Virus record (IMG/VR): IMGVR_UViG_3300008108_000057
Span: 32,001-96,000 of that record
Reading direction: 5' to 3' (one strand)
Source of the DNA: a virus
Length of the DNA: 64,000 nt
Below are positions 60,309 through 64,000 of this stretch, piece after piece; position 1 is the stretch's first letter, and every line of letters starts with the position of its first letter. The notes beneath the pieces were generated by a model, which saw only the letters and a program-made list of their open reading frames with translations, made no database searches and was not told the origin of the DNA. The position numbers and the translations under genes were made by a program.

Positions 60309-60577
60309 AAAAATATTTGGTTGAAACTGTGAGTATTTTCCGTCATCGGTATGTTGTTGAAGCCAAAGAAGAAGAACATGCATGTGATGAAGTCGTTTGT
60401 GAACGTGATAATTTAAAAGAATTTTCACAATATCATATTGATGAAAATATCACTTCCGTTCGTGAAATAGATGATGCAGAATATTTGAAGGTCTTTGATA
60501 AAGATAATGAGTATCTCAAAGATTGGGAAGAAGAACGGAAGTTCTCATTTGTCAACAAAATAGATTACAAAGACTAA
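60305..60577 (+). CDS. Hypothetical protein
   Basis: 90-aa ORF, YLVETVS.FR.RYVVEA pattern. Confidence 0.6.
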   Translation: MKKYLVETVSIFRHRYVVEAKEEEHACDEVVCERDNLKEFSQYHIDENITSVREIDDAEYLKVFDKDNEYLKDWEEERKFSFVNKIDYKD

Positions 60578-60652
60578 CTGGCTGTAGTACAATGGATAGT
60601 ACAGTGGCCTTCTAAGCCTCTGATCCAGGTTCGATTCCTGGCAGCCGGACCA
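60578..60652 (+). tRNA. tRNA-Arg(UCU)
   Basis: Cloverleaf; loop CT-TCT-AA; GGTTCGATTCC T arm; encoded CCA. Confidence 0.9.
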
Positions 60653-60656
60653 GTTC

Positions 60657-60733
60657 GGGCCGGAAGCTTAATTGGTATAAGCGTCCGACTCATAATCGGG
60701 GGATAGAGAGTTCGAATCTCTCCCGGCCCACCA
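60657..60733 (+). tRNA. tRNA with CAU anticodon, probably Ile2 (lysidine type)
   Basis: GGGCCGG/CCGGCCC acceptor; CCGACTCATAATCGG anticodon arm resembles ileX-type tRNAs; CCA. Confidence 0.85.
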
Positions 60734-60739
60734 AATAAT

Positions 60740-61186
60740 ATGAAAACAAAATATATTAGAGCATACATGGATGTAGCAAAACGATTTGCTGAATTGTCAT
60801 CAGCAAAGCGACTACATGTTGGAGCCATCATAGTCAAAGATGACAGAATTATCTCAATCGGCTATAATGGTATGCCACCTGGTTGGTCTAATATTTGTGA
60901 AGATGTTACAGAAGAAGGAACACTCAAAACCAAACCTGAAGTAATCCATGCAGAAGCCAATGCAATTGCAAAGTTAGCTAAAAGTACAGAATCTGGCAAA
61001 GATGCTACCATGTTTCTTACTCATGCACCATGTATTGATTGTGCCAAACAGATATTTACTGCTGGTATTCAGACGGTCTACTATGAGAAAGACTATAGAT
61101 CCAATGATGGTCTGAGATTCTTATCTTTATGTGGAGTAGAGGTAATTAAGTCCCCAGAGCCGTCAGACGGGTCGGAGAAGGGTTAA
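60740..61186 (+). CDS. dCMP deaminase
   Basis: VGA.IV, GYNG.P.G, HAE.NAI, PC..CAK. Confidence 0.92.
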   Translation: MKTKYIRAYMDVAKRFAELSSAKRLHVGAIIVKDDRIISIGYNGMPPGWSNICEDVTEEGTLKTKPEVIHAEANAIAKLAKSTESGKDATMFLTHAPCIDCAKQIFTAGIQTVYYEKDYRSNDGLRFLSLCGVEVIKSPEPSDGSEKG

Positions 61187-61228
61187 AAGATAAATATTGA
61201 TGCGTAGTGGGTATATAAAGGAAAACCC

Positions 61229-61738
61229 ATGCAATTCAAGATTGTCAAATGTCCAGATAAAGACTTCAAGCCTTTCGTGTCTGAGGCAGCCTCTTTCTTT
61301 GCCCAAGAACTCATCCCAAACACAAGAATACGGAATAACTGTAAAACCAAGATTGTCTTTACCAATAAGATTAAAGAATATGGTTATGCTAGTATTGCAG
61401 GTTTCAATACTAAAAAACAACCTAGAGAATTTCTTATAGAAATACATTCAGGTATCGGTGCAAGATTGATACTAGAAACACTTGCACATGAAATGGTACA
61501 TGTCAAACAATATATCATGAATGAAACTGATGATGTATTGTCTAGATGGAAGAATAAAAAGATAGACCAAAGTAAGGTTGATTATTGGAATCATCCTTGG
61601 GAAATTGATGCATATGGTAGAGAACCAGGGTTGTTATATAAATTTGTGGTACTGAATTGTCTTTGGCACATATTTGATGAATTTAAAAATCCTGATGATC
61701 CAATTATTTCAATTCCGATAAAATGGAAAGTTTCATAA
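61229..61738 (+). CDS. Zincin-like metallopeptidase
   Basis: TLAHEMVH.KQY (HExxH) and Y...PWEI.AY. Confidence 0.75.
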   Translation: MQFKIVKCPDKDFKPFVSEAASFFAQELIPNTRIRNNCKTKIVFTNKIKEYGYASIAGFNTKKQPREFLIEIHSGIGARLILETLAHEMVHVKQYIMNETDDVLSRWKNKKIDQSKVDYWNHPWEIDAYGREPGLLYKFVVLNCLWHIFDEFKNPDDPIISIPIKWKVS

Positions 61739-61756
61739 AAAACAACAAAAAAAGCA

Positions 61757-61785
61757 TTGACAATTCAAAAAGTTTACTATATAAT
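61757..61785 (+). promoter_or_regulatory. Consensus sigma70 promoter for the leader/tRNA operon
   Basis: Perfect TTGACA-17-TATAAT. Confidence 0.9.
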
Positions 61786-61818
61786 GTTAACATATTAAAT
61801 TTAGTTAGAAAGATTACA

Positions 61819-61914
61819 ATGTTGTCCATACGCAAACCCATTATAATTCAGCCAGAGTATCACACAAGTAATTGTGGAGATGCGTTATGGTTCGCCTTTG
61901 GGGTCCGTGTATAG
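61819..61914 (+). CDS. Putative attenuator leader peptide containing all 20 amino acids (MLSIRKPIIIQPEYHTSNCGDALWFAFGVRV)
   Basis: First ATG downstream of the predicted transcription start, weak AGAAAG SD; 31 codons, 29 distinct; 3' end overlaps the antiterminator strand. Confidence 0.75.
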   Translation: MLSIRKPIIIQPEYHTSNCGDALWFAFGVRV

Positions 61915-61945
61915 ACTAGAAATCTTAATCTAAACACAAGACCCC
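61900..61945 (+). promoter_or_regulatory. Putative antiterminator hairpin
   Basis: GGGGTC-C-GTGT-A-TAGA (61900-61915) pairs with TCTA-A-ACAC-AA-GACCCC (61929-61945), taking the 5' arm of the terminator. Confidence 0.75.
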
Positions 61946-61973
61946 TAGCGTAAAAACTAGGGGTTTTTTGTTT
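61938..61973 (+). terminator. Intrinsic terminator/attenuator upstream of the tRNA array
   Basis: ACCCCTAG-cgtaaaaa-CTAGGGGT followed by TTTTTGTTT, ending 5 nt before tRNA-Gln. Confidence 0.88.
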
Positions 61974-61978
61974 ACTGT

Positions 61979-62052
61979 TGGGATATAGTGTAACGGCAGC
62001 ACCGCAGACTTTGACTCTGTTAGTCTAGGTTCAAATCCTAGTATCCCTGCCA
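61979..62052 (+). tRNA. tRNA-Gln(UUG)
   Basis: GCAGA-CT-TTG-AC-TCTGT anticodon arm; T arm; CCA. Confidence 0.9.
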
Positions 62053-62059
62053 TGGTTAA

Positions 62060-62147
62060 GGAAGTGTGGATGAGTGGTTTAAATCAGCAGTCTTGAAAAC
62101 TGCCGACTGTAAAAGGTCCGTGAGTTCGAATCTCACCGCTTCCGCCA
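62060..62147 (+). tRNA. tRNA-Ser(UGA)
   Basis: GCAGT-CT-TGA-AA-ACTGC; long variable arm; GCCA end. Confidence 0.92.
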
Positions 62148-62160
62148 GATAGGAGAAGAA

Positions 62161-62304
62161 ATGGATATAGCAATCATACTATTAACAATATTAGGTTATT
62201 GGATAGGAATGGGTTTTACTGTGGCTGCTATGATGTTTTTGTTTTATAAGTTTGCTGTAATAGTAGGAGATATGGCTGAGAGGCTTAAGGCAGCGGTTTG
62301 CTAA
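62161..62304 (+). CDS. Small hydrophobic peptide (47 aa) overlapping tRNA-Ser(GCU)
   Basis: AGGAG SD; MDIAIILLTILGYWIGMGFTVAAMMFLFYKFAVIVGDMAERLKAAVC. Confidence 0.4.
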   Translation: MDIAIILLTILGYWIGMGFTVAAMMFLFYKFAVIVGDMAERLKAAVC

Positions 62305-62357
62305 ACCGTCGTATTGATTAAACAGTACCGTTGGTTCGAATCCAACTATCTCCACCA
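62266..62357 (+). tRNA. tRNA-Ser(GCU)
   Basis: GCGGT-TT-GCT-AA-ACCGT; long variable arm; ACCA end. Confidence 0.9.
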
Positions 62358-62389
62358 ATTAATGAACAAAAGGAAAGGAGTAATTATGA

Positions 62390-62458
62390 ATGGCTGCGAT
62401 AGTTATAGTTATCATTTTTTTGCTTCTTTATTTTGTGTTTAAGAATGACCTTCGGTAG
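62390..62458 (+). CDS. Small hydrophobic peptide (22 aa)
   Basis: AAGGAG SD; MAAIVIVIIFLLLYFVFKNDLR; stop lies inside the next tRNA. Confidence 0.3.
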   Translation: MAAIVIVIIFLLLYFVFKNDLR

Positions 62459-62538
62459 CTCACGGTAGAGCAGGATGCCTTATAAGCATTTGTCCAGATA
62501 AGACCCAGGATGTGGTTCGACTCCACACCGAAGGACCA
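62449..62538 (+). tRNA. tRNA with UAU anticodon (Ile) and an unusually long variable region
   Basis: CCTTCGG/CCGAAGG acceptor; GATGC-CT-TAT-AA-GCATT; approx. 20-nt variable region; TGTGG-TTCGACT-CCACA; ACCA. Confidence 0.8.
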
Positions 62539-62544
62539 GTTGAT

Positions 62545-62622
62545 GCAACGGTGGCAGAGTGGCCCAATGCAAAGGTCTGCAAAACCTTAAAACCGTCAGT
62601 TCGAATCTGACCCGTTGTTCCA
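62545..62622 (+). tRNA. tRNA-Cys(GCA)
   Basis: AAGGT-CT-GCA-AA-ACCTT; U73 discriminator; CCA. Confidence 0.9.
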
Positions 62623-62640
62623 GTTGCAAAAGTAGTAACA

Positions 62641-62690
62641 TGTTGTATTTGTACAACACGCTTGACAAAACGATTGAGCCAATGTACAAT
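62641..62690 (+). promoter_or_regulatory. Internal sigma70 promoter with upstream palindrome
   Basis: TGTTGTA-tttg-TACAACA (62641-62658), then TTGACA(62662)-17-TACAAT. Confidence 0.75.
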
Positions 62691-62707
62691 GATGTTTCTG
62701 TAGTTGA

Positions 62708-62723
62708 GTTTCTTTAACAATTT
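62708..62723 (+). promoter_or_regulatory. boxA-like Nus antitermination element
   Basis: GTTTCTTTAACAATTT versus rrn boxA TGCTCTTTAACAATTT; lies between promoter and tRNA-Glu. Confidence 0.6.
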
Positions 62724-62734
62724 GAAGTTTCTGT

Positions 62735-62809
62735 GGACCGTTCGTCTATCGGTTAGGACATTGCCCTTTCACGGCAGTAAGAGGAGTTCGATTCTCCTAC
62801 GGTCTACCA
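62735..62809 (+). tRNA. tRNA-Glu(UUC)
   Basis: TTGCC-CT-TTC-AC-GGCAG; T arm; CCA. Confidence 0.9.
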
Positions 62810-62849
62810 TATTAAAGTATATTCATAATAAGTATACTTCAATATGGTT

Positions 62850-63036
62850 TCCGGTTACTACTTTCCTGAAAGTAGCGTGTGGCGACGAGAATTGTCCCGG
62901 TGGCTATGGCACCGTTAGCGCCGTCGAAAGCAGACAACATAGCAGCGTGGACACTACGTAGCAAATCGCTGATTAGTGTTCGGACAGGGTAACAACTCAG
63001 TCTAGGGCTTGCGTGGAAAACAAGTAGCTAGACACC
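62850..63036 (+). ncRNA. Unidentified structured RNA within the tRNA array
   Basis: GC-enriched segment with several helices: CTACTTTC/GAAAGTAG, CGACG/CGTCG enclosing CGGTG/CACCG, GGACACTA/TAGTGTTC, GTCTAG/CTAGAC. Confidence 0.5.
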
Positions 63037-63092
63037 TTAATTTTTTTACAAAGGAGACCTGTCATGGATAGTGACAAGAGTGGTAAGATTAT

Positions 63093-63167
63093 GGGTGCGT
63101 AACTCAATGGCAGAGTAATCGGCTTTTAACCGATAAGTTGTGAGTTCGAGTCTCACCGCACCTACCA
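63093..63167 (+). tRNA. tRNA-Lys(UUU)
   Basis: ATCGG-CT-TTT-AA-CCGAT; CCA. Confidence 0.92.
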
Positions 63168-63201
63168 TATAAAAGTATTTTGTATCAGAATATTTTTATA
63201 T

Positions 63202-63278
63202 GGCACTTTAGTTCAGTTGGTTAGAACGCTGCCCTGTCACGGCAGAGGTCAGGGATTCGAGTTCCCTAAGTGTCGCCA
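63202..63278 (+). tRNA. tRNA-Asp(GUC)
   Basis: CTGCC-CT-GTC-AC-GGCAG; GCCA. Confidence 0.92.
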
Positions 63279-63285
63279 AATTTAT

Positions 63286-63360
63286 TCCGGTGTAGTTCAG
63301 TGGTAGAACGGTGGACTGTTAATCCATATGTCGTTGGTTCGATCCCAACCTCCGGAGCCA
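63286..63360 (+). tRNA. tRNA-Asn(GUU)
   Basis: GTGGA-CT-GTT-AA-TCCAT; GCCA. Confidence 0.92.
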
Positions 63361-63365
63361 ATTAT

Positions 63366-63450
63366 GGGTGTCGAGAAGCATTGGTGACTTCAGCAGACTG
63401 TAAATCTGTCGCCTTCGGCATACGGGGTTCGAATCCCTGGGCACCCACCA
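63366..63450 (+). tRNA. tRNA-Tyr(GUA)
   Basis: GCAGA-CT-GTA-AA-TCTGT; variable arm GCC-TTC-GGC; ACCA. Confidence 0.9.
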
Positions 63451-63530
63451 AATAAAAGTATCAAAGGCTATATACAGAATACATTATTCGTACTTGAATT
63501 ATTATCAAATTTTTTAGTGAAGGAATCCAA

Positions 63531-64000
63531 ATGAAAACTCGTGGATTAAATTATGGGGCCAGTGTTGGTCTTGAAGCATATGATATAGACTGGAACTCTA
63601 AAGAAGAAATTGATGAATTAGGTAGACTTTGTGCTAGTCAATGTATTGTTTTTGTCAATGAAAGAATACCTACTGAACAAGTATATAACATTATGACTCA
63701 ATGGGGCGACTCAAGCCGAGCCCTTATACATGAATATGTTATTCAACGTAAAATTTCAGGTAGACATTGGAGAGAGATATTACTTAATTTAGGATATATC
63801 GCTAAGGATGCAGGGAAGGACATCAGTCCGGCAGTATCTATGGTAAGTTATAAAAAGGATGATGATGGTCGTCCTCGAGGCATTTTCAGTAACGGTGAAT
63901 TAGATTGGCATAGTGACCAATGTGCATTTGATGATGCACAACGTATTATTGGTTTACAAAGTATAAGTGACACGGTAAACAGTCAAACAACATTTTTATG
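63531..64000 (+). CDS. TauD/TfdA-like 2OG-Fe(II) dioxygenase (3' partial)
   Basis: Manual translation MKTRGLNYGASVGLEAYDID...G.F.NGELDWHSD...QTTFL; HxD motif; AAGGA RBS; open to the window end. Confidence 0.7.
   Translation, partial: MKTRGLNYGASVGLEAYDIDWNSKEEIDELGRLCASQCIVFVNERIPTEQVYNIMTQWGDSSRALIHEYVIQRKISGRHWREILLNLGYIAKDAGKDISPAVSMVSYKKDDDGRPRGIFSNGELDWHSDQCAFDDAQRIIGLQSISDTVNSQTTFL

Follow-up and report, generated by a model that had tools for sequence, protein, structure and literature searches.

What is a 31-codon open reading frame that specifies all 20 amino acids doing at the head of a phage tRNA gene array? Why phages carry tRNA genes, and when these genes are used, is debated; proposals include the matching of codon usage and compensation for host tRNAs lost to degradation or cleavage in the infected cell. 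The frame considered here comes from a lake phage and lies in a 64 000 nt stretch of DNA (the window) that is part of a 163-kb IMG/VR virus record. Gene content, together with remote matches between a neighbouring protein and T4-like phages, is the basis for regarding this phage as T4-like. The reading favoured here, with a probability of roughly 60 %, is that the ORF serves as translated leader in a transcription attenuator of the ribosome-mediated (trp) type heading the tRNA array. Slow decoding of this leader by the ribosome would then probably let transcription enter the tRNA genes.

The features of the locus are collected in Table 1. Transcription is predicted to start near 61792, and a promoter of the same type as P1 precedes all 59 distinct homologous units described below, although its presence was required by the search. 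At the Shine–Dalgarno site the relatives have AGGAAG or AGGAAA, or else no 5' UTR whatever. The tRNA-Gln gene begins at 61979, 11 nt past the U run of the terminator. No promoter-like site was found between 61968 and 62661, and no T4 late or MotA box was found before 62662; the tRNA genes at 61979–62622 are therefore reachable only by read-through of the terminator. The conservation of these five genes in a place with no other promoter gives indirect support to the proposed regulation of read-through by translation of the leader.

Table 1. Positions, in window coordinates, of the leader, its regulatory elements and the first tRNA genes
Feature	Start	End	Strand	Description
Promoter P1	61757	61785	+	sigma-70; TTGACA, 17 nt spacer, TATAAT; 12/12 consensus matches
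Shine–Dalgarno-like sequence	61807	61812	+	AGAAAG, purine-rich, 6 nt before ATG; from sequence and alignments
Leader ORF	61819	61914	+	31 sense codons and TAG; 29 distinct codons; 20/20 amino acids
Segment 1	61824	61839	+	codons 2–7; pairs with segment 2 in the minimum-free-energy fold; conserved in homologues
Central hairpin P3	61850	61892	+	inside the loop closed by helix 1:2
Segment 2	61900	61916	+	codons 28–31, stop codon and 2 nt after it; partner is segment 1 or segment 3 (antiterminator)
Segment 3	61934	61949	+	5' arm of the terminator with ACAC extension upstream
Intrinsic terminator	61938	61973	+	helix 3:4 at 61938–61967; six U at 61964–61969; GUUU at 61970–61973; homologue stems with compensatory changes
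First tRNA block	61979	62622	+	Gln-UUG, Ser-UGA, Ser-GCU, Ile-UAU, Cys-GCA; without a promoter of its own

The phage genome contains 25 tRNA genes with 23 distinct anticodons for 19 amino acids, only Phe being missing. They span G000:C1:92578-101356, which corresponds to window position 60578 to past the window end. Three of the tRNAs have the anticodon CAU. The one at 60657 has a G1-C72 pair, and for this reason is not an initiator and is a candidate elongator Met or lysidine-Ile tRNA; the last one (window-equivalent position 69283) has a G1/A72 mismatch, which is typical of initiators. CCA ends are encoded in all five tRNA sequences inspected (the three CAU and two Ile tRNAs), and in the ARAGORN drawing of tRNA-Ile(UAU) at 62449–62538 the variable region is about 20 nt long, which is uncommon among Ile tRNAs. 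Small frames also lie among the first tRNA genes: one at 62161–62304 encodes 47 hydrophobic aa and runs into tRNA-Ser(GCU), while at 62387–62458 two overlapping frames for peptides of 18 and 22 aa stand behind a strong GGAG, the 22-aa peptide resembling a membrane helix. At 62637–62690, a small inverted repeat (62637–62662) directly abuts a near-consensus promoter (TTGACA, 17 nt, TACAAT) before tRNA-Glu. Most relatives have the same hairpin and promoter module about 30 nt past the leader terminator, before tRNA-Gln; in the window's clade five tRNA genes intervene between the terminator and the module. The gene upstream of the leader (61229–61738) encodes a 169-aa protein with an HExxH motif of SprT/WLM type. 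The SprT-like and WLM hits of this protein are weak; it matches PHROG 10499 (unknown function), and its place next to the leader, on the left, is conserved in many uncultured T4-like phages. Proteins of Caulobacter phage Cr30, T4-like cyanophages and others match it with only 29–39 % identity. No cultured close relative was found: BLAST of the leader, its neighbours and the commonest family variant against 50,697 phage records gave no DNA match.

The 31 residues of the leader peptide include all 20 amino acids. An earlier note on this DNA had drawn attention to its codons, and the inventory given there is correct: 29 of the 31 codons are distinct, all eight doubled residues (Leu, Ser, Arg, Pro, Gly, Ala, Phe and Val) switch codon, and only Ile reuses codons (ATA twice and ATT twice). 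The reported preference for G/C-ending codons, against the AT-rich bias of the phage genes, was also seen, with a GC3 of 0.45 in the leader and 0.244 in phage ORFs of at least 120 aa. Such codon diversity is rare, 29 or more distinct codons being present in 1 of 41,889 31-codon windows of these ORFs, and random controls gave P=0.006 for the leader's base composition and P=0.003 when base-pair positions were kept. None of the same 41,889 windows contained 20 kinds of amino acid. As phage genes are AT-biased, nulls based on composition and on structure were added, and these gave P=4e-4 for all-20 breadth in random open frames with the leader's base composition and P=5e-4 in random sequences that keep its base-pair positions; RNA structure was rejected as the cause of the breadth on the latter value. 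A scan of the 163-kb genome in all six frames found 31-residue stretches with 20 kinds at the leader and at one other locus only, and no six-frame ORF of 25–46 codons reached 20 kinds (0 of 704). The all-20 amino-acid content is a stronger fact than the codon counts.

The earlier note had read the codons as consistent with sensing at the isoacceptor level and as weighted to Ile, the doubled AUA fitting two candidate AUA-reading tRNAs nearby (CAU at 60657 and UAU at 62449). On this explanation synonymous codons would be chosen to maximise the number of tRNA species polled. The use of two codons for each of the eight doubled residues is as it would predict, as is the polling of the phage Ile isoacceptors UAU and GAU twice each; moreover, ATA makes up 45 % of leader Ile codons and 27 % of those in phage genes, and ATC is never used. 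However, 28 distinct codons out of 30 are not exceptional once the peptide is given (P=0.20 for uniform synonymous use and P=0.06 for phage codon usage), and codon diversity given the peptide across the family has a z of +0.55 for uniform use, rising to +1.5, in favour of the explanation, over the phage-usage expectation. The leader polls 20 of the 23 phage anticodons compared with a mean of 13.1 for phage-gene windows (P=2.4e-4), but redrawn synonymous codons poll 19.0 (P=0.37–0.41), so that the actual codon choice adds no polled anticodons, and three phage isoacceptors (Leu-UAG, Arg-UCU and Ser-UGA) are left unread. By a count from the codon list, phage tRNAs can read 77–80 % of leader codons (the 80 % figure allows inosine wobble for Arg-ACG) and 75 % of those in phage genes. 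Codons are repeated in many relatives. The weighting to Ile does not extend to the family, in which four Ile residues occur in only 2 of 48 leaders and the mean is 1.75 (5 %). Of the two AUA codons, likewise, just the one at codon 4 or 5 is a recurrent feature, present in 27 of 48 leaders; since this codon sits in paired segment 1 its recurrence is explained by RNA pairing. The second AUA lies in a hypervariable linker with a triple Ile that varies even among close relatives; both this AUA and the Ile excess are confined to the window's clade. The diversity of codons is a by-product, with no separate isoacceptor-level design, and the high GC3 and codon variety are attributed to amino-acid breadth and RNA constraints overriding the AT-rich codon bias. 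A sensor working at the level of isoacceptors is thus considered very doubtful.

Homologues of the leader were sought with the 169-aa neighbour protein, with two distant homologues of that protein and with a degenerate DNA pattern. Fetched loci were scanned for a promoter, an ORF of 25–60 codons and a terminator, ignoring peptide composition, and three DNA-pattern hits (L027, L028 and L035) were dropped as chance matches within unrelated sequence. The resulting family, which comes entirely from uncultured T4-like phages, comprised 59 distinct units; their 48 distinct peptides (25–46 aa) fall into 13 clusters at 55 % identity. The unit was found only at the head of tRNA arrays. In units with at least 200 nt of downstream DNA, a tRNA gene was located 5–120 nt past the terminator in all except U07 in L096, and the first tRNA was mostly Gln-UUG, otherwise Ser-UGA or Trp-CCA. 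Clades with a gap of about 90–100 nt carry a small hairpin and a second consensus promoter, which is absent in at least seven lineages, the window's among them. Four leader peptides searched against Pfam and PHROG gave no match. An Rfam scan of 60400–64000, with E up to 1, found nothing in 61750–61978 besides tRNAs and, elsewhere, only three sub-threshold matches on or beside tRNA genes.

The RNA from 61792 to 61973 folds at -54.9 kcal/mol (z=-6.0), and this fold comprises helix 1:2, with hairpin P3 in its loop, and the terminator. The segments can form three mutually competing duplexes, helix 1:2 (61824–61839 with 61900–61916), helix 2:3 (61900–61910 with 61934–61945) and the terminator helix 3:4, with energies of -17.3, -18.4 and -21.3 kcal/mol, respectively. 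When the RNA is truncated before the 3' arm of the terminator, the predicted fold switches to helix 2:3, which blocks the terminator. Modelled masking by a ribosome alters the predicted fold: helix 2:3 is predicted in the nascent RNA unless the ribosomal A site is at codon 24 or later.

This competition was found throughout the family. In all 48 leaders the best upstream partner of the terminator 5' arm was the 3' strand of helix 1:2, a result that includes clusters sharing 7–16 identical residues with the window's peptide. The free energy of this pairing was -13 to -24 kcal/mol, with z of -2 to -7, in 47 of the 48; for the exception, U17, the automatic pick of segment 3 gave -7 and a z of 0.2. 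The sequences of segments 1 to 4 change together between lineages. In the alignment of the 48 sequences the terminated fold was 86.5 % paired, compared with 35–50 % for controls with slid partners, and its covariation score of 0.204 (0.145 in shuffles) was reached by none of 500 shuffles. Helix 2:3 was 88.1 % paired (28–68 % in slid controls) and had double changes in 6 of its 11 pairs as against 2.4 in shuffles, its covariation again being reached by 0 of 500. For the two parts of helix 1:2, 79 % and 86 % of cells were paired; two of nine pairs change on both sides, and the variable pairs mostly remain compatible with pairing. Compensatory changes were present in seven of the nine pairs nearest the loop of P3, for example CAC/TGT to CGC/TGC. 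The alignments establish the anatomy of the element, its conservation and its covariation, and all 48 leaders are predicted to form trp-type competing helices 1:2, 2:3 and 3:4. A different internal helix put forward in the earlier note (61826–61834 with 61881–61890) can be drawn for the window but is not conserved. It was 67 % paired over the 48 homologues, a level equalled in 222 of 500 shuffles, its central pairs hold in only 24 % of homologues, and its bases belong to other, conserved helices. A further pairing was seen outside the ORF, in which the 5' UTR including AGAAAG (61806–61816) can pair with the stretch just after the stop codon (61920–61931); in the commonest relatives a U run and AGAA of the 5' UTR pair with a conserved post-stop UUCU and A run. 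As a consequence, the finished, terminated RNA may hide its own ribosome-binding site.

Evidence for translation comes from the manner in which the leaders vary. Segments 1 and 2 are separated by one of five distances (63, 66, 69, 72 and 78 nt), all multiples of 3, while the spacing between the stop codon and segment 3 has eight values representing all three residue classes, so that changes in length respect the reading frame within the ORF but not outside it. Both ATG and GTG serve as start codons in units whose 5' UTR measures 19–40 nt, and the predicted leaderless forms, in which the start codon lies 6–9 nt after the -10 box, have ATG in 20 of 20 cases. No in-frame stop was found among the 48 diverged leaders. 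Nucleotide conservation tracks RNA pairing and lacks codon-position periodicity: mean column entropy was 0.70 in paired and 1.22 in unpaired ORF columns, with no difference between first, second and third codon positions. Past segment 1 the linker residues are hypervariable, and the C-terminal tails are free in length and sequence. With conservation following pairing, no codon periodicity and a free linker and tails, it is the frame that is selected and not the peptide sequence.

Two explanations without a regulatory switch are affected by these results. One is that a small phage protein is encoded here by an ordinary gene, which has a promoter and a terminator of its own and merely adjoins the tRNA genes; a frame conserved in all 48 homologues and the separate tRNA promoter of most relatives would then be expected. 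Such a gene is improbable given that third positions show no excess variability, that linker residues and C-terminal tails change as freely as described and that no protein family is matched. Furthermore, it leaves the covarying 1:2, 2:3 and 3:4 pairing without a role and does not account for a unit that occurs only at tRNA-array heads and is the sole transcription route into them in at least seven lineages. The other is that the product is a small, structured and non-coding RNA, about 180 nt long, whose open frame is fortuitous. The very stable fold and the conservation that follows pairing agree with this, and RNA of balanced composition does yield high codon diversity, antisense tRNA frames reaching 30–31 distinct codons. 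An incidental frame, however, would not confine in-frame length changes to the ORF, keep ATG or GTG at the homologous start (ATG in every predicted leaderless form) and remain free of stops in 48 diverged sequences, nor would it readily contain all 20 amino acids, the structure-preserving null being the one that gave 5e-4. No Rfam family was matched either, and a purely non-coding RNA is considered highly improbable.

The stop codon itself is unevenly distributed, TAG being used by 13 of 48 leaders and by 11 of 158 long ORFs in the window's genome. In one relative (L237:10536, record G004) the leader ends in TAG and the 28-tRNA array includes an ARAGORN tRNA with the anticodon CUA (labelled Pyl); an amber suppressor could take the ribosome beyond the leader stop codon.

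Amino-acid breadth is a property of the family and not of the window alone. Homologous leaders contain 17–20 kinds of amino acid, mostly 19–20, in 25–46 residues, and none of the amino acids occurs in fewer than 88 % of leaders (Trp and Tyr reach 100 %, Cys and His 96 %). All 13 clusters were above the expectation from uniform amino-acid frequencies (P=0.002 to 0.26 each). Inheritance with random replacement was simulated from a 20-kind ancestor, with diverged positions replaced from the family's own flat composition. All 12 other clusters exceeded the simulated mean, by 1.6–3.6 kinds, with a Fisher P of 3e-7 that is optimistic because a star phylogeny was assumed; the clusters being homologous, combined P values for breadth overstate their independence. 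Residues present in single copy move, the sole His being encoded by codon 15 of the window's leader but by codon 5 in most relatives, and Cys and Gln occupy different positions in one cluster. The proposal of the earlier note that selection acts on breadth and not on peptide function is borne out by the Fisher test and by the conservation that follows pairing. This establishes selection for an open frame and for breadth without constraint on the peptide sequence, and the sequence comparisons thereby identify the ORF as a putative translated attenuator leader under selection for these two properties. Selection on peptide composition, as opposed to peptide sequence, is clearly exemplified by this leader.

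Leaders that lack amino acids whose tRNAs are also lacking from the array are suggestive only, and are noted as a lead. Leaders of 19 kinds are found in two relatives whose 28 tRNAs cover all 20 amino acids. The leader of a relative with six ARAGORN-called tRNAs (Trp, Pro, Asn, Thr, Met and Gly) is the shortest, with 25 aa and 17 kinds, and about half of its residues are the amino acids of these six. In L083, Ile and Lys are absent from leader and array alike (hypergeometric P of about 0.2 in a hand calculation, most contigs being fragments), and in two fragmentary contigs the agreement between leader and array was mixed.

A trp-type attenuator would operate as follows. Transcription would begin at the consensus promoter, and segment 2 would pair with either segment 1 or segment 3, pairing with the latter blocking the terminator. 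A ribosome abreast of RNA polymerase, at about the last eight codons (from codon ~24 on), would cover segment 2; the terminator would form and termination would release a structured RNA about 180 nt long. Where the tails of relatives are longer, the ribosome would stand between segments 2 and 3, and the terminator would also form. A ribosome delayed at any earlier codon would allow helix 2:3 to form, and the polymerase would continue into tRNA-Gln and the genes behind it. Since every amino acid is present once or twice, shortage of almost any charged tRNA should slow the leader, which would in effect measure overall decoding capacity and feed back on a tRNA set covering 19 of the 20 amino acids. 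Read-through, like termination and the transcript ends, is a prediction in this scheme. We infer that read-through is regulated, as well as the direction and size of the response, the behaviour of the untranslated RNA and the supply of tRNA as the signal.

Several observations count against attenuation or limit it. Most relatives have a strong second promoter about 30 nt past the terminator, and read-through there can therefore only add to tRNA transcription. There is no run of any single codon, so one scarce tRNA may elicit a weak response. On the simplest trp logic a stall acts only if it masks segment 1 (about codons 1–13), which counts against an attenuator of this kind; all-20 breadth over the whole ORF would then need ribosome queuing or a timing model. 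Finally, at equilibrium the modelled nascent RNA favours helix 2:3 even without a ribosome, and the untranslated state could thus read through rather than terminate.

The same anatomy would also serve a translated attenuator with a signal other than tRNA, either general ribosome–polymerase coupling, as in pyrBI and pyrE, or ligand-triggered arrest by the nascent peptide, as in TnaC. A motif around Gln-Pro-Glu-Tyr-Arg-Thr and a later Trp are widely kept, and known arrest peptides typically have Trp, Pro and acidic residues. The conserved residues, however, are encoded by the two strands of hairpin P3 and show no codon periodicity, distant members lose the motif while retaining the switch and the breadth, and an arrest peptide leaves the retention of all 20 amino acids unexplained; this alternative is considered unlikely. 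More specifically than attenuation as such, the leader may be a pan-tRNA sensor of decoding capacity, in which selection maintains every amino acid and a shortage of almost any charged tRNA delays the ribosome and switches on transcription of the phage's near-complete tRNA set. This proposal is tentative, at somewhat below even odds. Starvation, a poorly matched host or host anticodon nucleases could each bring about such a shortage. If the proposal is true, phage tRNA arrays are an inducible, self-regulating supply and not a constitutive one.

Comparison with known systems places the element closest to leader-peptide attenuators, with which it shares four structural hallmarks and from which it departs in its flat codon content and its phage tRNA targets. 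The shared hallmarks are a promoter-proximal ORF with a start signal, an intrinsic terminator, the antiterminator 2:3 and an anti-antiterminator 1:2 that overlaps the translated region. The enterobacterial examples (trpL, hisL, leuL, thrL, pheL, the multivalent ilvGMEDA and ilvBN, and pheST) likewise have a short translated ORF near the promoter and four segments that form exclusive 1:2, 2:3 and 3:4 helices, of which 3:4 is an intrinsic terminator. In these, as in the predicted folds here, the position of the ribosome decides which helix forms. The energies of the trp leader helices form a ladder comparable to that of the 1:2, 2:3 and 3:4 helices of the phage. Enterobacterial leaders contain runs of codons for one or a few amino acids and control biosynthetic or synthetase genes, whereas enrichment in the codons of sensed amino acids was not found in the phage leader, which has a flat composition without codon runs, has every amino acid about once or twice and precedes tRNA genes. 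Also unlike the enterobacterial attenuators, segment 2 of the phage lies inside the ORF and adjoins the stop codon, and some members of the phage family are predicted to be leaderless mRNAs.

In pyrBI and pyrE of E. coli the outcome likewise hangs on the distance between ribosome and polymerase on an ORF of mixed composition before a terminator. There, however, a close ribosome prevents termination and the signal is UTP-dependent pausing of the polymerase, while here a close ribosome is predicted to promote termination. T-box riboswitches are also leaders with a terminator and an antiterminator that report tRNA charging, the function inferred here, but they are untranslated and bind one specific tRNA through a specifier codon, whereas the phage leader is translated; no match to a T-box covariance model was found in 61750–61978 (Rfam, E up to 1). 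A full-text literature search found no published description of such control of phage tRNA genes. If an attenuator does stand before the array, the phage measures decoding performance and adjusts its tRNA supply, which would extend leader-peptide attenuation to tRNA genes, and from one amino acid to all.
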